From: Escherichia phage ph0011
Sequence record: OP557969.1
DNA: 64,000 nt
Direction: 5' to 3' (one strand)
This document shows positions 17,523-52,857 of this stretch, piece after piece. The notes beneath the pieces were generated by a model that worked only from the letters and a program-made list of their open reading frames with translations, did not search any database and had not been told where the DNA came from. Each line of letters opens with the position of its first letter. Position 1 is the stretch's first letter. The position numbers and the translations under genes are program-made.

Positions 17523-17616
17523 TATATGGGTGTAATAGTTATAAAAAATTCCATTACACACCAAATCACTTCAGTGATTTATATCTTGACATTGAAAAAA
17601 ATAATTATGTATAGTT

Positions 17617-17647
17617 AGAGAACTTCATATGGAGTTCTCTTTTTTTA
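17617..17647 (+). terminator. intrinsic terminator
   Basis: 10-bp stem agagaacttc/ggagttctct, 4-nt loop, 7 T. Confidence 0.75.
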
Positions 17648-20224: not shown

Positions 20225-20259
20225 TGGGACAATAATTGAACCTGTGATATAATGTATAT

Positions 20260-20782
20260 TGTAAAATGACAACGGACATTGTAAAAAATGGACACTGAAA
20301 ACCTAATTCACTTGAAAATGTAAAGGATAGATGAGCTTTACCGTTGTAGCGAACAGCAGAAGAAACCCGTTAGAGTACTGGCATTCAAACAAACACGATG
20401 TAAGACCACGAATCACGGCGACACGGCTGTATAAAGAACTCCGATAAGCATACAGAGAGTTCCTAGATAGATGTATAAGGTTCGCACCTTACCAGATTTG
20501 CTAAGGGAGTTTAAGAATGGCGAACGCAATTTTTACAAGAAAGTTGCGTCCAAAATTTGAGAACAAGTACTACTTTGATCGAATAGAGTTAGTACTGAGT
20601 GCTGTTGATGAAAAGACCAGCGACCGTTGCATATGACTGCGATAGAGAGAAACCGAGCAACCCGCTTTCGCTCTCTAAATCTTTGGTACGAGAAAGATCC
20701 GTCCAAAATTTGAGAAATTCGCAATTCGATAATATCCGATGCCATCAGCGTCAAGAAGAGACTTAATTGTCTCTTTTTTATT
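20260..20782 (+). ncRNA. candidate structured non-coding RNA region (no + strand ORF, GC-richer than flanks)
   Basis: about 600 nt without + strand ORF of 60 codons or more in an otherwise gene-dense array; TGaTATAAT -10-like element at 20245-20253; nested stems (gttcgc/gcgaac, cctta/taagg, agagag/ctctct); 17-nt direct repeat cgtccaaaatttgagaa at 20547 and 20700; ends at terminator 20755..20782. Confidence 0.3.
20755..20782 (+). terminator. intrinsic terminator
   Basis: aagagac/gtctctt stem, loop ttaatt, T-run. Confidence 0.65.
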
Positions 20783-20919
20783 ACTTTCATTCCCCTGTGG
20801 GGGATGAAATAGTCCTCAACAAATCCCGTCAAGTTATTAAAATACATTATCATTATTCAGAAGTAACAAGTTTACGAAGTAAACGAAGTGACTTCTTGGG
20901 TTGCGAGAGAACGAAGTGA

Positions 20920-21348
20920 ATGAGTAACACAACGAAAATATATAATAAATCTGAATTAACACAATTGTTATTCAAAGAATATTTTGAGTTTCAGATAAAA
21001 GACGAACATCAATTACCACAACAATACTTGAAAAGAATTAAAGATACGTCAGTAATTACTAAAGAAACTAATTTTTATAATAGTATTTTGGATTTCGTTA
21101 AATCAGTTCATACGACAAGACCTATTGTAGTTTTGTTTTTTGATAAATCTATCCCTTTAGTAGTTCCCGAAAATGTATTTTTTATCTCAGAAACTGATTT
21201 AAATAACCAAAGTACTATAAGTAGATTAAGAAATTGCTTACTTGTAGTATGTGATTCTTATTTGTATAATAACAGAATACTATGGGATAGAAGCAAACGC
21301 AATGCAATTTCGGAAATGAACCCTGAACTTACATTTATTATTAACTAA
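20920..21348 (+). CDS. hypothetical protein
   Basis: ORF track; ATG. Confidence 0.45.
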   Translation: MSNTTKIYNKSELTQLLFKEYFEFQIKDEHQLPQQYLKRIKDTSVITKETNFYNSILDFVKSVHTTRPIVVLFFDKSIPLVVPENVFFISETDLNNQSTISRLRNCLLVVCDSYLYNNRILWDRSKRNAISEMNPELTFIIN

Positions 21349-27125: not shown

Positions 27126-27153
27126 TTGACATAAAACAAAAACATGCTATAAT
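27126..27153 (+). promoter_or_regulatory. sigma70-type promoter TTGACA-16nt-TATAAT with TGn extended -10
   Basis: perfect hexamers TTGACA (27126) and TATAAT (27148) with 16-nt spacer, upstream of lysozyme gene. Confidence 0.6.
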
Positions 27154-27270
27154 ACTTAAACATTTGAAAAGAACGTTTTTGTACTGTAGAAAGTCCGATG
27201 AGGCTTTTGCAAAATGGCCTCTTTGCCATCTTTGTGATTGCCCATCTTAACAATCAACAAAGGAGGCGTT

Positions 27271-28197
27271 TTGAAACAAGCGAAAAAAGCACTGAAAACT
27301 AAAATTGCCGTAGGCGTATTAGTTTCATCAGCCCTATTCGCTGCTATTGGATTTTATGGTTTTTCACGACATGATCATGCACCATCATTAGACGAAAGTC
27401 AGGTGCATAATTTGAAACCACAGTTGACTCAAATTCAAAAGCAGGAACTACCACAGGTATCAGTACCGAAAACAGTTCCAAGCAGCGAGAAACATTATAC
27501 GGTTCAACCTGGTGATAGTTATTATTCTATTGCTAAAAAGTTTAAACCTAAAAATGTACAACTTGAAGAGTATGTTATTTTGTTGAAAAATATCAATTTA
27601 AATGCTACACTTCATACTTCTCAGGGTATCTTTATCCCAACAAAAGAGGATTTGAAGAACATATTATTACCAGATGTGACTGTTCTGTTTGATTACACTG
27701 ATCCAGAAATTATCAATCACATTAAAGAAGCTGAAGGTTCAATAGAATACCAGTCCAAGAATAAACGACGTTTACTGGGTGGTCAGGTTGGTGTTTCATA
27801 TCGTAATTCTAAATTTTATCCATACCGTGATGTAAAAGGTAACTATACGATTGGGTACGGTCACTACCTTGGTAAGAATGCTTCTGATGCAAGTAAGTAC
27901 CGTAACGGAATTACCAAATCACAAGCACATAAACTTTTATTGGATGACATGGAACGAATTAATAATGATTTAATTTTATTATTGAAGAAGCGAAATGCGA
28001 CAAACCTTACGGTCGAACAACAACGAATTTTATTTGAGATGGCATTTACTCTAGGAGTTGACAAGTTAAACACTTTCAATAAACTATGGAAAAGCGTTGA
28101 AAATCAAAATTACAACAAGTTCAAAAAAGAAATTAAGAATTCTCTATGGTATCGTCAAGTAGGAAACCGTGCAGAATTGTTGTTAAGCTCACTCTAA
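27271..28197 (+). CDS. peptidoglycan hydrolase: N-terminal signal-anchor/TM + LysM + T4-lysozyme-family (GH24) domain; likely TTG start
   Basis: AGGAGG 4 nt before TTG 27271 (ORF track uses TTG 27238); Gly/Ala-rich TM IAVGVLVSSALFAAIGFYGF; LysM YTVQPGDSYYSIAKKF; lysozyme motifs NYTIGYGHYLG and SLWYRQVGNRAELL. Confidence 0.8.
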   Translation: MKQAKKALKTKIAVGVLVSSALFAAIGFYGFSRHDHAPSLDESQVHNLKPQLTQIQKQELPQVSVPKTVPSSEKHYTVQPGDSYYSIAKKFKPKNVQLEEYVILLKNINLNATLHTSQGIFIPTKEDLKNILLPDVTVLFDYTDPEIINHIKEAEGSIEYQSKNKRRLLGGQVGVSYRNSKFYPYRDVKGNYTIGYGHYLGKNASDASKYRNGITKSQAHKLLLDDMERINNDLILLLKKRNATNLTVEQQRILFEMAFTLGVDKLNTFNKLWKSVENQNYNKFKKEIKNSLWYRQVGNRAELLLSSL

Positions 28198-28213: not shown

Positions 28214-28546
28214 ATGCTAAATCTAAACATTCAAGGCAACATTGATATCACTCCAGCAATCCAAGATGCTATTTACAATGAAGCAAAAAGTCTGGATAAG
28301 TACCGTACTTCTTCAGTACTAGACATTGGTGTTCATGTTAAGAAAGAGCATAAAACTCAATATGCTGTAACTTTAACTGCTGGTAGTAAATCAGTGACTG
28401 CTGATGATGCTGATTTGTATAAAGCAATTGTTGAATCTTTTGATAAGATGGAAACTGTATTCAGTAAAGACAAAAGCATTAAATTGCACCGCCGAAACCA
28501 CCCAGAACATCCAGTTCTTGATGATTTGACAGAAAACGAAGAGTAA
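28214..28546 (+). CDS. hpf: ribosome hibernation promoting factor / RaiA (YfiA)-like protein
   Basis: MLNLNIQGNIDITPAIQDAIYNEAKSLDKY ... LYKAIVESFDKMETVF follows the HPF/YfiA pattern (MQLNITG.N.EIT.AL ... LEQY ... MYAAIDGLIDKL) as recalled. Confidence 0.65.
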   Translation: MLNLNIQGNIDITPAIQDAIYNEAKSLDKYRTSSVLDIGVHVKKEHKTQYAVTLTAGSKSVTADDADLYKAIVESFDKMETVFSKDKSIKLHRRNHPEHPVLDDLTENEE

Positions 28547-28556
28547 TATATACTAA

Positions 28557-28586
28557 AGGGACAGAATTAATCTGTCCCTTTTCTTA
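28557..28586 (+). terminator. intrinsic terminator
   Basis: agggacag/ctgtccct 8-bp stem, 7-nt loop, T-rich tail. Confidence 0.7.
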
Positions 28587-31757: not shown

Positions 31758-31867
31758 AAAAATCGGGACAAAAAACCAATAACTGATATAATTATTAGTA
31801 TCTGAACATCGATTGATGACAAAGAGATAAGATATGCGTTATAGTTGTGGAATAATATTTTATCGTG

Positions 31868-49240: not shown

Positions 49241-49621
49241 ATGTTTCCTGAACCATCACATAACAGTACTGAATATCAAAATAGTGTACTTTCCAAAGTT
49301 AGGGAAGTACATGAATCTGATTCAGAAATAACCGACCGTATGCTTCTGATGTCAATTTTTGAAAATTTCAGAACTGGCGGTGGTTTGCGTCTTAGCAAGT
49401 TTGGGTATGGAATTTGTAAAGAAAATAATCTATACGAATTTACAAAAATCCCCTTGAAAAGAGAATTTAAAAGTTCTATAATGTTTACATCACTTGATAG
49501 AATATGTACTTCACCTTACTATGTAGAAGGGCCGTATATATATCTTTCTGATGCAATGATAATAGCTGAATTAACATTGTGTTGTGATGATTTTAAGCAA
49601 TTGTTTTCTATACATATGTAA
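49241..49621 (+). CDS. hypothetical protein
   Basis: ORF track. Confidence 0.45.
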   Translation: MFPEPSHNSTEYQNSVLSKVREVHESDSEITDRMLLMSIFENFRTGGGLRLSKFGYGICKENNLYEFTKIPLKREFKSSIMFTSLDRICTSPYYVEGPYIYLSDAMIIAELTLCCDDFKQLFSIHM

Positions 49622-49634
49622 TAAAAAATAATTG

Positions 49635-49881
49635 TTGACAAGTTGAAAATGATGTGATATAATAAACATCACAATGAAAGTTTTCAAGTTTCACATGATG
49701 TGAGATTGAAAAAAAGAAAAAATAGTTGACGAGTTGAAATGATGTGATATAATGTTCACATCAAGACAACAAAGAGATTTACCTTTTAAACACACGGATG
49801 ATTCATGAAGTAACAAAGGAACTGATAAGTTAAAATATTTTAACACAGTTCCTTTACTTTTGCACACGGATTGGCTATAAT
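49635..49881 (+). promoter_or_regulatory. tandem promoter/leader region: P1 TTGACA-17-TATAAT (49635/49658), P2 TTGACG-16-TATAAT (49726/49748), P3 -10 TATAAT (49876); inverted repeats overlap the -10 elements
   Basis: consensus hexamers with TGa extended -10; GATGTGA/TCACATC inverted repeat flanks P2 -10; CACACGGAT repeated at 49792 and 49863. Confidence 0.6.
49815..49862 (+). terminator. leader hairpin/attenuator candidate between P2 and P3
   Basis: 10-bp stem aaaggaactg/cagttccttt with 21-nt loop, then acttttg. Confidence 0.4.
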
Positions 49882-49922
49882 AGAAACCTAAACGATTTTA
49901 TCCAACAAAAGGAAATATATAC

Positions 49923-51248
49923 ATGACTACTCAAAACGATATCCTGAACGTTAAACTGACTCCAAAGAAAGCTAAAGAAGCAATGGCACTAGCTGACATG
50001 ATTCAAGATAGCCTGATGATTTGGGGTAGCCCAGGTATCGGTAAGTCTGCAATCGCTCGTCAATATGCTGATGAAAATTATCCACTGCGTAAAGACAACG
50101 AAGCCAAAATTGAGTTAATGAAACAACAAATTGAAGCTGACCCAGAGAATGCTGAACAGCTACGTCGTGAACTAGCTGCATTTGAAGCAAAACTGATCGA
50201 CCAAGATACAAACTTTATCGATTTCCGTTTGTCTCAGATTGAACCAAGTGACCTTCGTGGTATTCCAGTTCCAGAGAAACTTTTCCGTAAAACTGATGGT
50301 TCTCTCCTAAAAGAATCTGAGCTTGCTGAAGCAAAAGATTATGTAGCTGAAACAGCAGTAGTATGGGCAGCACCTAAAGTACTGAAATTACCAGATGATT
50401 GGAAAGGTGTTATTCTGTTTGACGAAATTAACTCTGCAATGCCAATTGTTCAGGCAGCGTCTTATCAGCTAATTCTCGACCGTTGTGTTGGTGAGATGAA
50501 GCTACCGAAAACTGCCCTGATTCTTGCAGCAGGTAACCGTGAAACTGATGGCGGTGTGACGTTCTCACTGGCTACACCACTACGTGACCGTATGACACAC
50601 ATTGAGATGATTCCTTATCATCAAGATTGGATCAACGATTATGCAATTGGTAAACGTTTGAACCCAGCAACTGTTGCGTTCATCAACAACACAGGTTCTA
50701 AGTACTTTAACACTCTTAGCCCACAAGATCCTTCTCACAGCGGTGGTACATCTCCGCGTTCATGGGAAGCAGTAGCACGCTACGAAGATCTGAAGAAAAC
50801 TAAGACGATTGATAAAGAAGTATTCCGTGCAATGATTGCGGGTCGTGTAGGTGAAGGTGTTGCAACTGAATACATTGAGTACGTTGATAACGTTGCAAAA
50901 CTCCCAGATACCATGTCTATTCTGTCTGGTGAAATCAAAGATATCGATGCGTCTCTTGATATTTCTGCTAACTACTTTATCACACTGAACTTGGTTTATA
51001 AAATTATTGACCTGTACAATGAGAAGCAAGAACAACGTCTACCAGTGGAAGAATGGGGTAAATTGTGCAACAACTTCATCACCTTCCTAGACCATAACTT
51101 CTCTGCAACTCAAGCAGAATTGGCAGTGCTGGCAATCCGTACCATTACACTACATAAGGTTTTGATTTCCATTAAAGATGTACCAGCGTTTAAAGATTTT
51201 ATCGCTAAGTACTCTGAACTAGTTCGTAAAGCACGCTCTCTTGGGTAA
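49923..51248 (+). CDS. MoxR-type AAA+ ATPase (CobS-like)
   Basis: Walker A GSPGIGKS, Walker B ILFDEINSA, overall MoxR/CobS-like layout. Confidence 0.75.
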   Translation: MTTQNDILNVKLTPKKAKEAMALADMIQDSLMIWGSPGIGKSAIARQYADENYPLRKDNEAKIELMKQQIEADPENAEQLRRELAAFEAKLIDQDTNFIDFRLSQIEPSDLRGIPVPEKLFRKTDGSLLKESELAEAKDYVAETAVVWAAPKVLKLPDDWKGVILFDEINSAMPIVQAASYQLILDRCVGEMKLPKTALILAAGNRETDGGVTFSLATPLRDRMTHIEMIPYHQDWINDYAIGKRLNPATVAFINNTGSKYFNTLSPQDPSHSGGTSPRSWEAVARYEDLKKTKTIDKEVFRAMIAGRVGEGVATEYIEYVDNVAKLPDTMSILSGEIKDIDASLDISANYFITLNLVYKIIDLYNEKQEQRLPVEEWGKLCNNFITFLDHNFSATQAELAVLAIRTITLHKVLISIKDVPAFKDFIAKYSELVRKARSLG

Positions 51249-51270
51249 TTAACAAAGAGTTGTTGACAAG

Positions 51271-51298
51271 AAGGATACCTAATGGTATCCTTCTTTTA
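51271..51298 (+). terminator. intrinsic terminator
   Basis: aaggatacc/ggtatcctt 9-bp stem, T-rich tail. Confidence 0.7.
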
Positions 51299-51322
51299 TC
51301 TTAACTAAACGAGGAAATATAC

Positions 51323-52747
51323 ATGTCCGATAACAAAACTACATCTGTGTTCAATGAAGTATCCCCAGAACTTCAGAAAGAATGTCAAGACCGTCTAGTT
51401 CTGGCTCGTACATCTTTGATGTTGACTGCACCATTCTTCGGTGTATTGGCTTCGCGTTTGCGTCCAGTTCCAAATAACACATGGTGTCGTACTTTGGCAG
51501 TTGATGGTAAACATTTATTTTACAATGTAGAATTTGTAATGGGTGTTCAAGATCCAGCAAAAAAGAAAGCATATGAAGAGGCTATTCGCGAAAAGCACCC
51601 AGAAGTTACTGAAGAACAATTAAAAGAAATGACTGAAGGTCTGACAGATGAAAACATTATTGCAGTAATTTGTCATGAAATCTTGCACTGTGCATACGAT
51701 CACTTCCTTCGTCGTGGTATGCGTGATCCACAGCGTTATAACCGTGCAGCAGATTATGCGATTAACCAAATCATCGTTCGTGAGAAAATTGGTAAAATCC
51801 AAAGCTCATGGTTGTATGATAAAAAATATGAAGGAATGACTGCTGAAGAGATTTATAATCTTCTTGAAGAAGAAGAGCAACAGCAAGATGGTGAAGGTGA
51901 AGGTACACCACAAAGTGGCAGCGGTGAAGGTGAAGGCAAAGATCGCGGGACATTTGGTGATATCAAGGATGGTAAGGGTAAACCAAAAGGTACTACAATT
52001 GACCAACATGACGTTCCACAAGAAGGTCAAGAAGGTGGTTCTAGTGAACAACAAAAACGTGATTATATGGATGATTTTAAAACAGCAATGATGAATGCTG
52101 CTCGTGCTGGTGGTACACCAGCAGAAATCGCTCGTATGATTAATAACTTCAAAGAACCAAAGATTGATTGGCGTTCTAAGCTTCAACGCACTCTTCGTAG
52201 TTGGTTGAAGTCTGATGCAACTTATCAAAATCCAGCACGTCGTTCATGGGGTGCAGGTTTTGGTTCTAATGGTTCATTTTATGGTAATCCAATTTATCCA
52301 GGGATGAAACCAGATGATGATATTGATATTGCGATTGCTCTGGATGCTTCTGGATCTATTTCCGAAGACATGCTTCGTGATTTCATTAGTGAAGTTCTTG
52401 GTATCACTAAACAATTTAAACAGTTTAAGATTCGTATCATGACATTTGATACTGAAGTTTATACTGTCAAGGATTACAAAACTGGTGAAGAACGTAAGAT
52501 TCTGGAATATCCAGTAAAAGGTGGTGGCGGTACTGATTTTGAAGCAGTGTGGGTTCACATGAAGAATGACAATTATAAGCCTAAACAGCTTGTCATGTTT
52601 ACTGATGGTGAGCCATGGCAGTCATGGGGTGATCCAAACTATTGCAAAACATTGTTTGTGATTCACAGTAATCCAAATAAAGTTGCACCATTTGGTGAAA
52701 CAGTACACTACGAGTATGAAGCAGACAAAAAACGTCAACGTAGTTAA
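51323..52747 (+). CDS. VWA-domain protein with N-terminal HExxH metallopeptidase-like motif (CobT-like partner of MoxR ATPase)
   Basis: MIDAS motif ALDASGSIS and FTDGEP; HEILHCAYDH motif in N-terminal half. Confidence 0.7.
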   Translation: MSDNKTTSVFNEVSPELQKECQDRLVLARTSLMLTAPFFGVLASRLRPVPNNTWCRTLAVDGKHLFYNVEFVMGVQDPAKKKAYEEAIREKHPEVTEEQLKEMTEGLTDENIIAVICHEILHCAYDHFLRRGMRDPQRYNRAADYAINQIIVREKIGKIQSSWLYDKKYEGMTAEEIYNLLEEEEQQQDGEGEGTPQSGSGEGEGKDRGTFGDIKDGKGKPKGTTIDQHDVPQEGQEGGSSEQQKRDYMDDFKTAMMNAARAGGTPAEIARMINNFKEPKIDWRSKLQRTLRSWLKSDATYQNPARRSWGAGFGSNGSFYGNPIYPGMKPDDDIDIAIALDASGSISEDMLRDFISEVLGITKQFKQFKIRIMTFDTEVYTVKDYKTGEERKILEYPVKGGGGTDFEAVWVHMKNDNYKPKQLVMFTDGEPWQSWGDPNYCKTLFVIHSNPNKVAPFGETVHYEYEADKKRQRS

Positions 52748-52759
52748 GTACTAAATAAT

Positions 52760-52790
52760 GAGAACGGAATTTTCCGTTCTCTTCTTTTTA
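52760..52790 (+). terminator. intrinsic terminator
   Basis: gagaacgga/tccgttctc perfect stem, loop attt, T-run. Confidence 0.8.
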
Positions 52791-52857
52791 TAAGTGGGAT
52801 GACTTATAAAAATATGATATAATAGTTAATGTACAAATATACATGGAGAGTAATAAA

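Follow-up and report, generated by a model that had tools for sequence, protein, structure and literature searches.

The 301-nucleotide (nt) intergenic gap at 49622-49922 of the Escherichia phage ph0011 sequence OP557969.1 lies directly upstream of a gene for an AAA+ ATPase and a gene for a VWA-like protein. The stretch analyzed, called the window here, is 64 kb of a roughly 350-kb genome. On balance, we favor the gap as the control region of this ATPase/VWA operon, in which a conserved terminator would attenuate the transcripts of strong sigma70 promoters. What was observed directly is the set of sequence elements, how they are conserved among relatives and the covariation of the two hairpins: a promoter, a terminator, a short GGA-loop hairpin and a ribosome-binding site (RBS) follow one another in this order in all RaK2-like phages examined, and the order recurs in Alcyoneusvirus, the PHA46-like phages, Eneladusvirus, Mimasvirus and metagenomic relatives.

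Conserved architecture of the gap

The regions 5' of the ATPase orthologs were compared in about 20 lineages, down to about 48-54% ATPase identity. The set comprised Asteriusvirus (n=10), Alcyoneusvirus (RaK2, K64-1), Salmonella phage PHA46 with related metagenomic contigs, Serratia phage BF, CBB and GAP32 with related contigs, and more distant metagenomic relatives. The 1.2 kb around the locus showed 85-93% identity to 34 Escherichia and Salmonella jumbo phages of the 121Q/PBECO4 group (Asteriusvirus), and the source of the window is assigned by sequence to an Asteriusvirus-like (121Q/PBECO4), RaK2-like jumbo phage.

In the ancestral spacing, the promoter abuts the end of the upstream gene, the stem-loop follows 26-36 nt later (61 nt from promoter P2 here; about 20-55 nt after the predicted start site in the ancestral form), the GGA hairpin comes 2-5 nt after the terminator, and the RBS is 40-60 nt further on. 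The ancient core is thus read as one promoter, an ANGGA motif, an intrinsic terminator, a GGA-loop hairpin and an RBS. The tandem promoters P1 and P2 and the TGTGA palindromes were found in close relatives only, and P3 is weaker in RaK2 and absent elsewhere. Within the genus, P2, the middle palindrome, the GGA motifs, the terminator and the P3 -10 of 8 Asteriusviruses are 0.89-1.0 identical, compared with 0.73-0.74 for third codon positions and 0.61-0.72 for linkers.

A pattern scan of viral contigs found one copy of the module per related genome, the remaining matches being chance hits, and a covariance-model search of the window for extra copies returned only ordinary terminators. In a PA5oct-like Pseudomonas phage with a distant ATPase homolog the module was absent, and the usual terminator-then-promoter order was seen. 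At 7319-7354 of contig L067 (IMGVR_UViG_3300032212_000073), which is not among the ATPase-homolog loci, a terminator is followed by AACGGATTTGG and TAGTATAAT in a layout like that of terminator, GGA element and P3, probably by coincidence.

The terminator hairpin

49815..49861, + strand: intrinsic terminator/attenuator with a 10-bp stem, an inner 6-8-bp stem and the U-rich tail TTTACTTTT; fold -13.7 kcal/mol

The hairpin is formed by the arms AAAGGAACTG (49815-24) and CAGTTCCTTT (49846-55) together with the inner stem, and is followed by TTTACTTTTG. The sequence-only reading that preceded this analysis had described a 10-bp-stem hairpin with a U tract downstream of P2, and it was borne out by the folding energy and by chance levels taken from 1000 dinucleotide shuffles of the gap, in which the 10-bp inverted repeat reached P=0.02. 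A consensus terminator scan missed it solely because the loop limit of the scan was 8 nt. The same reading had suggested attenuated expression; in agreement, every relative examined has a canonical terminator 3' of the promoter(s), and compensatory changes maintain it. In the relatives it folds at -11.7 to -17.9 kcal/mol, with 4-6-nt loops and 6-9 T in the 12-nt tail. Identity among the 8 Asteriusviruses is 0.94 for the terminator and 1.0 for the U tract.

Five to six pairs of the stem carry compensatory changes and none is changed on one side only: the stem reads GGAACUG/CAGUUCC here and GGCACUG/CAGUGCC, GACACUG/CAGUGUC, GGACUG/CAGUCC or ACAGC/GCUGU in relatives. In the lineages L041/L042 the promoter-terminator order is kept with a wholly different stem, GGCUCC/GGAGCC. 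When 18 lineages were aligned with MAFFT, 87% of the cells in both hairpins could pair, compared with at most 50% for slid partners; 7 pairs were changed on both sides, and none of 500 shuffles reached the observed covariation. A covariance-model alignment of 23 sequences gave 8 pairs changed on both sides. RNAalifold, run on the whole leaders of 14 short-type lineages, predicted the terminator and the GGA hairpin and nothing else. These results argue that both hairpins are under structural selection. An anti-Shine-Dalgarno pairing of ACCTTTT (49781-87) and a four-segment attenuator were also noted by eye and set aside; the segments are invariant in the two genera that have them and hence show no covariation, and they are missing from the other genera.

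Terminator-like hairpins with different layouts were seen at other places. In the ATPase-VWA gap (51249-51325) and the homologous gaps of RaK2, PHA46, BF and CBB, a terminator-like hairpin with a U tract was present in every genus examined, its sequence entirely different between genera. Promoters overlap terminator hairpins at 17586-17640 (TTGACA-18-TATAGT), 28526-28581 (TTGACA-17-TATACT) and, in the ATPase-VWA gap, 51264-51294 (TTGACA-17-TATCCT). At these three sites the predicted starts fall inside or 3' of the 5' arm, and upstream transcripts would stop there while the promoter's own RNA would escape. This compact insulating layout contrasts with the order in the gap under study, a promoter followed by a full terminator.

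Promoters P1, P2 and P3

49620..49634, + strand: A-rich UP-like tract 5' of P1, from sequence reading; identity 0.61 within Asteriusvirus, near the neutral rate
49635..49663, + strand: P1, TTGACA-17-TATAAT with extended -10; 12/12 matches, predicted start near 49670
49709..49725, + strand: A-rich UP-like tract 5' of P2, variable in length; identity 0.67 within Asteriusvirus
49726..49753, + strand: P2, TTGACG-16-TATAAT with extended -10; 11/12 matches, predicted start near 49760
49853..49881, + strand: P3, TTTACT-17-TATAAT without TG; 10/12 matches, overlying the terminator tail and the GGA element

Promoter matching confirmed the two near-perfect sigma70 promoters with TGa extended -10 elements, and the third TATAAT, that had been reported from the sequence. 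P1 consists of a -35 TTGACA at 49635-49640, a TG at 49655-56 and a -10 TATAAT at 49658-49663; the corresponding parts of P2 are TTGACG at 49726-31, TG at 49745-46 and TATAAT at 49748-53, and those of P3 are TTTACT at 49853-58 and TATAAT at 49876-81. Both P1 and P2 carry TGaTATAAT, and the hexamers and 16-17 bp spacing of all three fit the definition of sigma70-type promoters. Only 14 sites with at least 11/12 matches were found on both strands of the 64 kb (13 on the + strand), and P1 is one of only two 12/12 sites. The motif TGnTATAAT occurs 20 times in the window against 8.05 ± 2.6 expected, 18 of the 20 on the coding strand, and is therefore the phage's promoter core. Early, sigma70-driven transcription from P1 and P2 is plausible.

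The -35 of P1 is unchanged in 10 Asteriusviruses and in RaK2/K64-1, and the identity of P2 within Asteriusvirus is 0.90. The -10 of P3 is invariant (identity 1.0) in 8 Asteriusviruses, reads TATCAT in RaK2 and is absent in the PHA46-like, BF and CBB-like phages. We assign P2 as the ortholog of the single promoter of other genera. In BF, PHA46 and the CBB-like phages, that promoter is followed by TTAAGACA/TTAAGAxA, to which TCAAGACA downstream of P2 aligns. The promoter class differs by group, being TTGACA in Asteriusvirus and RaK2, TGGGAC in the PHA46-like phages and TGAAAC-17-TGnTATAAT in the CBB/GAP32/BF-like phages, the last of these matching the 'divergent RpoD-like' class of PMC5259590. 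The A tracts upstream of P1 and P2 resemble the UP-like elements given there for RpoD-like, UP-type early promoters of the related phage CBB. Downstream of the terminator of the CBB/GAP32/BF-like phages no consensus promoter was seen by eye (the promoter scan was not applied there), and hence the operon appears to be expressed by read-through in these phages.

A TGAAACG in the P2 spacer of 121Q was rejected as the CBB 'divergent' motif, since the TGAAAC of CBB is a -35 that stands 17 nt before the -10; the TGAAACG motif did not recur in the 64-kb window.

Several other promoter-like sites were noted in the window. The only other 12/12 promoter (TTGACA-16-TATAAT with TG) belongs to a second promoter-terminator-gene arrangement at 27126-27275, where a hairpin with a U-rich tail (27200-27221, -8.5 kcal/mol) comes about 47 nt after the -10 and is followed by AGGAGG and an open reading frame (ORF) with a TTG start. 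Within the ORF at 49241-49621, a promoter-like TTGAAA-17-TATAAT at 49454-49492 could be a further upstream promoter; its TATAAT is unchanged in 8 Asteriusviruses though it lies within coding sequence, and the GTTTACATCA behind it is a 16-nt near-copy of the -10/start region of P2. On the 3' side of the VWA gene (52760-52823), a terminator at 52760-52781 is followed by an 11-bp hairpin; its loop, GGGATG here and GGGACA in 121Q, doubles as the -35-like box of a promoter of the form TGGGAC-17-TGATATAAT. Promoters of this class are also located at 20226-20253, at 31765-31792 and 5' of the ATPase in the PHA46-like phages, and the class seems to correspond, in Asteriusvirus, to the 'TGAAACG/TGGAACG' promoters of CBB.

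GGA elements and a model of attenuation

49791..49799, + strand: 5' ANGGA motif (CACACGGAT), an A-N-GGA placed 5-20 nt before the terminator
49862..49875, + strand: 3' GGA element (GCACACGGATTGGC), forming in relatives a hairpin of 3-5 bp that carries NGGA(N) in its loop

The sequence-only reading had pointed out that CACACGGAT is repeated twice. The copies are present at 49791-99 and 49863-71 and are the two GGA elements themselves; as a 9-nt direct repeat alone they lie within chance (P=0.39). An A-N-GGA precedes the terminator in all but two lineages (exceptions L026/L040 and L042), and the GGA motifs of 8 Asteriusviruses are 0.91 identical. While the 5' site has no consistent stem, the stem of the 3' element covaries as CAAA/UUUG, CAGA/UCUG, GCUUA/UAAGC, GCUCA/UGAGU and GCCAA/UUGGU. 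The 3' element was rejected as a -35-like box of the TGGGAC/TGGAAC class, because it lies 3-15 nt from any -10-like hexamer instead of 17. The ANGGA motifs probably imply a trans-acting RNA-binding factor on the read-through RNA, with CsrA as the best-fitting candidate.

It is a tentative proposal, and rather unlikely in our estimate, that host CsrA (or RsmA) binds the ANGGA motifs around the terminator and possibly the Shine-Dalgarno GGA. Such binding would be compatible with attenuation and would make the translation or stability of the ATPase/VWA mRNA depend on the physiology of the host. In almost all relatives the 3' element, a 3-5-bp hairpin with an A-N-GGA-N loop, covarying stems and U or A but never G after the GGA, matches the published site definition, in which a GGA stands in an ANGGAN loop on a stem of at most 4 bp and sites 10-63 nt apart can be bridged (review PMC7652899). 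CsrA targets typically have two or more sites at distances of 10-63 nt, often with one over the Shine-Dalgarno sequence; by the part coordinates, 72 nt separate the 5' and 3' GGA cores in this genome and about 45-55 nt separate them in the CBB-like phages, and the 3' GGA lies about 43 nt from the Shine-Dalgarno GGA in this genome. Known hosts of RaK2-like phages are all Enterobacterales, which we take to have CsrA/RsmA, and no RaK2-like phage was among the 88 phage records that carry a csrA homolog. Against CsrA, the motif is short and the Shine-Dalgarno region of the CBB-like phages reads GGU, not GGA. The GGGATG-loop hairpin at 52785-52812, tried as a second CsrA-like site, was rejected; it is a TGGGAC-type -35, and 121Q has GGGACA in its place.

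The favored reading can be put as a sequence of steps, in which promoter activity, termination efficiency, timing and factor binding are all predicted. In this lineage a single ancestral promoter would have been refined to the sigma70 consensus and have acquired an extended -10 and an A tract; its tandem duplication would have produced P1, a decayed palindromic copy and P2, and the weaker P3 would have arisen over the terminator tail. Host RNA polymerase would start strongly at P1 and P2, and the terminator would stop most of these transcripts, plus read-through from the late genes, to leave leader RNAs of roughly 190 and 100 nt. The level of ATPase/VWA mRNA would then be set by the read-through fraction and P3, and the flanking ANGGA elements probably bind a trans-acting RNA-binding factor (host CsrA being the best-fitting candidate) that tunes the stability or translation of the read-through mRNA.

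Several results weigh against this reading, and those on the GGA elements count against CsrA as well. In this genome the 3' GGA stem has two broken pairs (0.0 kcal/mol vs -2.8 in A4), owing to the same C-to-A change as in the motif homogenisation described below. L041/L042, the clade that diverges most, is alone in lacking the 3' GGA hairpin, and the motifs are absent there; L026 is without the 5' GGA. GGA-loop hairpins were not enriched genome-wide (80 observed vs 69 ± 8 expected). The covariation fits an RNA hairpin and a DNA palindrome alike. Terminator-like hairpins are frequent in this genome, even in the ATPase-VWA intergenic region, and therefore the hairpin at the locus may be generic punctuation and not a dedicated attenuator. 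No transcriptome of Asteriusvirus, Alcyoneusvirus or other RaK2-like phages was found in the literature searched.

Small RNA and antitermination as alternatives

The promoter and terminator could instead constitute a small-RNA gene, which we think unlikely. P2 (and P1) would then yield an abundant RNA of about 100 nt (and about 190 nt), or one of about 55 nt in the CBB-like phages. Its conserved 5' segment (UUAAGA...ANGGAU) would be a trans-acting element that base-pairs or titrates a protein with affinity for GGA, and the ATPase operon would be expressed mainly via P3 or read-through. As expected for such a gene, each lineage combines a strong promoter with a canonical terminator whose distance from the -10 is 26-61 nt, and no ORF is conserved; UUAAGA and ANGGA are kept across genera whose ATPases are only 54-60% identical. 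The position of P3 after the terminator in Asteriusvirus likewise agrees with the usual terminator-then-promoter order elsewhere in the window. However, the CBB/BF-like phages appear to need read-through, the 5' segment differs in length and sequence in this genome (an insertion of roughly 30 nt), and no Rfam family matched. The conserved 3' GGA hairpin, moreover, lies past the terminator, implying that the read-through RNA itself is functional.

A combination of these ideas, in which RaK2-like phages carry a conserved leader or small RNA that starts at a strong promoter, stops at a promoter-proximal terminator, has Csr/Rsm-type GGA sites on its flanks and lets host CsrA control the ATPase/VWA operon, is equally doubtful to us. 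Action of the phage on CsrA may be an alternative route within it, and the Asteriusvirus duplication may serve to boost RNA output.

Factor-dependent antitermination of the lambda PR'-qut-tR' type was considered very improbable. Constitutive P1 and P2 would give a short RNA until a promoter-loaded phage factor made the polymerase terminator-resistant. The universally conserved promoter-proximal terminator, the conserved start-site sequence (UUAAGA) and within-genus promoter spacer, and the many further terminators inside the operon would suit this mechanism. On the other hand, neither a Q-like gene nor a binding element nor a -10-like element that would induce pausing was identified, and promoter classes that differ by genus (TTGACA, TGGGAC, TGAAAC) argue against a conserved site for a promoter-bound factor.

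Tandem duplication of the promoter unit

49681..49712, strand not assigned: 32-nt palindrome TTTTCAAgttTCACATgATGTGAgaTTGAAAA, decayed middle copy of the promoter unit; -10.5 kcal/mol

P1 and P2 are copies of a roughly 45-nt unit that is repeated three times (49627; 49673, degenerate; 49718), a feature missed by the sequence-only reading. The 17-nt perfect direct repeat had P<0.001 in the shuffles. Taken together, the shuffle values indicate that the promoters, the duplication and the hairpin exceed chance, whereas the P2 palindrome and the 9-nt repeat alone do not.

Two intact promoter copies were found only in Asteriusvirus; RaK2 has one and a decayed -10, most genera have one, and SP27 has three. 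In SP27 (L051, LC494302, about 273267-273680), an extra 97-nt tandem duplication of the P2 unit has produced the three promoter units. Its junction lies at ACGGA|AAAAA, and hence the A tracts and the GGA motif seem to be points of recombination or slippage. With a copy number of 1-3 among relatives, the promoter duplication is judged to be recent and labile.

P1 and P2 are 93% identical over 30 nt in this genome and about 79% identical in 121Q. The 3' GGA motif of relatives reads CCCACGGAT, CCAACGGAT or CCATCGGAT. The regularity of the repeats in this genome looks like local homogenisation.

The middle palindrome has invariant stems and a variable internal loop in 10 Asteriusviruses, so that it likely has some function, either as the 5' hairpin of the P1 RNA or as a protein site. 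Its identity is 0.89 vs 0.73-0.74 for third codon positions within Asteriusvirus, and it shows no compensatory changes. In P1 transcripts it would fold as a 5'-proximal hairpin.

Palindromes as candidate operators

49653..49673, strand not assigned: 6-bp inverted repeat TGTGAT (49653-58) / ATCACA (49668-73) around the P1 -10; -4.9 kcal/mol as RNA
49740..49763, strand not assigned: 8-bp inverted repeat TGATGTGA (49740-47) / TCACATCA (49756-63) around the P2 -10 and start; -10.4 kcal/mol as RNA

An inverted repeat straddling the P2 -10, with a weaker version at P1, had been taken as a hint of repressor control. The repeats are present, measuring 8 bp and 6 bp. The repressor control itself is not supported by the comparison with relatives, since the palindromes are confined to Asteriusvirus, the P1 copy is degenerate in one clade (CMSTMSU/Turkey3), and JNE01 has a 1-nt insertion in the right arm of P2. 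Most Asteriusviruses retain 6-bp arms of the P2 palindrome, whereas JNE01 has them interrupted and other genera lack them. Repressor control beyond the genus is not supported by these comparisons.

Within the genus, the TGTGA/TCACA palindromes at P1, the middle copy and P2 might still be operators of a dimeric repressor of phage or host origin (e.g. CRP-like) that would switch off P1 and P2 after the early phase, but we regard this as improbable. The palindromes overlap the -10 and start site at both promoters, the conservation of the middle palindrome and the P2 arms exceeds the neutral level, and A4 has matching changes on both P1 arms, to CGTGA/TCACG. The density of half-sites, 6 in 131 nt vs 0.29 expected, also seems to favor operators, although three of the copies are by-products of the duplication. 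Against them, an 8-bp inverted repeat with a spacer of at most 12 arises by chance at P=0.13. The left arm of the palindromes (TGTGA) and the GTT that follows the -10 fall within GTGATATAATGTT, the promoter core that this phage uses generally and that is also seen at 20243, 23651 and 37405. The orthologous promoter of five other lineages has no comparable site, no other promoter in the window carries the palindrome, and ATGATGTGA elsewhere in the window falls within genes.

The common CRP site has a 6-bp spacer, and the spacings here (N8, N9-11 and N1) do not match it. A CRP site was rejected because TGTGA-N8-TCACA occurs only at P2 and its right half is lost in one clade.

The gene pair and the remainder of the locus

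49908..49925, + strand: Shine-Dalgarno AAAGGAAA and ATPase ATG, from sequence reading; identity 0.92 within Asteriusvirus
49923..51248, + strand: AAA+ ATPase, N4 gp24-like; labeled 'MoxR' in some relatives' records
51323..52747, + strand: DUF2201_N metallopeptidase-like and DUF2201 VWA-like protein, N4 gp25-like; Pfam E=2.6e-35 and 7e-21

On its 5' side the gap adjoins a late structural cluster, a series of genes that the 121Q annotation lists as virion structural proteins. The downstream genes had been described as a MoxR/VWA pair. The VWA/DUF2201 partner is solid by Pfam, but the MoxR label was not confirmed: the AAA, TniB and Mg-chelatase matches of the ATPase to Pfam were all sub-threshold, and a PDB sequence search gave no match. 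The RaK2 annotation calls the pair N4 gp24-like and gp25-like.

Small ORFs in the gap (MKVFKFHMM at 49674; 11 codons at 49798; 58 aa on the minus strand, 49691-49867) were rejected as they are not conserved, and a 27-codon ORF over the hairpin in CBB was rejected as a real gene on the same grounds. Start codons are lost, stops occur in GAP32 and BF, frameshifting indels occur in relatives, and the ATG is absent in this genome. An Rfam scan of the window gave no hits at the gathering threshold, the best permissive score being at most 26 bits vs thresholds of 38-70, and a tRNA search found none.

Elsewhere in the window, about 700 nt at 20225-20922 contain no long + strand ORF and start with a TGGGAC/TGTGATATAAT promoter. 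By eye, this region seems higher in G+C than the flanking sequence. Neither Rfam nor a tRNA search gave a hit there, and a 106-aa ORF runs on the minus strand at 20533-20853; the region may encode a non-coding RNA or contain a gene that was called wrongly.

Significance and comparison with known systems

What is known of how RaK2-like jumbo phages control transcription comes from motif predictions only. The locus adds a concrete unit that joins promoters to a terminator backed by covariation and to a GGA hairpin, with conservation in at least five genera. Should CsrA bind the GGA elements, or should the short leader be a functional RNA, a lytic jumbo phage would here have tied a pair of genes to the post-transcriptional network of its host, which is rare. 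Otherwise, it supplies strong compact sigma70 promoters and a characterized terminator for annotation. Promoter copy number varies from 1 to 3 among close relatives, and part of the apparent operators is simply the phage's promoter consensus.

The T7 A1/A2/A3 and T5 early promoters are tandem strong early sigma70 promoters of lytic coliphages. The locus resembles them in having near-consensus host-type promoters within about 250 bp, in the same direction and with A-rich tracts upstream. Unlike them, it is located between a late structural cluster and a two-gene operon instead of at a genome end, its promoters are a recent duplication with a copy number of 1-3, and a terminator follows only 60-150 nt downstream.

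In the lambda PR' - 6S RNA - tR' system of Q antitermination, as with other promoter-proximal terminators or attenuators, a strong promoter is followed by an intrinsic terminator. The likeness to the gap lies in a terminator about 50-200 nt after a strong promoter and 5' of the genes served, with a short leader RNA expected. The gap differs in that an antiterminator protein, a qut-like site and an alternative antiterminator helix were not found there, nor was a conserved leader peptide.

Compared with the promoter classes of CBB/GAP32 in PMC5259590, P1 and P2 fit the 'RpoD-like promoter with UP-like element', and the orthologous promoter of CBB/GAP32/BF fits the 'TGAAACG...TGnTATAAT' class. 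The CBB ATPase promoter is absent from the table rows retrieved; it lies >100 nt upstream, outside the 100-bp search window of that paper. The paper does not describe the arrangement of promoter, terminator and GGA hairpin.

With CsrA/RsmA leaders such as those of glgC and flhDC (PMC7652899, PMC4005645), the gap shares a weak short A-N-GGA-N hairpin, a second GGA nearby and a GGA-containing Shine-Dalgarno sequence. In contrast to these leaders, the candidate sites flank an intrinsic terminator and are phage-encoded, and the stem is degenerate in this genome. In phage vB_EcoM_G17 (MK327931) the same hairpin is annotated only as a putative terminator by ARNOLD, an annotation silent on its place after the promoters, its conservation and the adjoining GGA hairpin. 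The locus is best described as a regulatory region of an ordinary type whose conserved leader RNA motif is modestly new.

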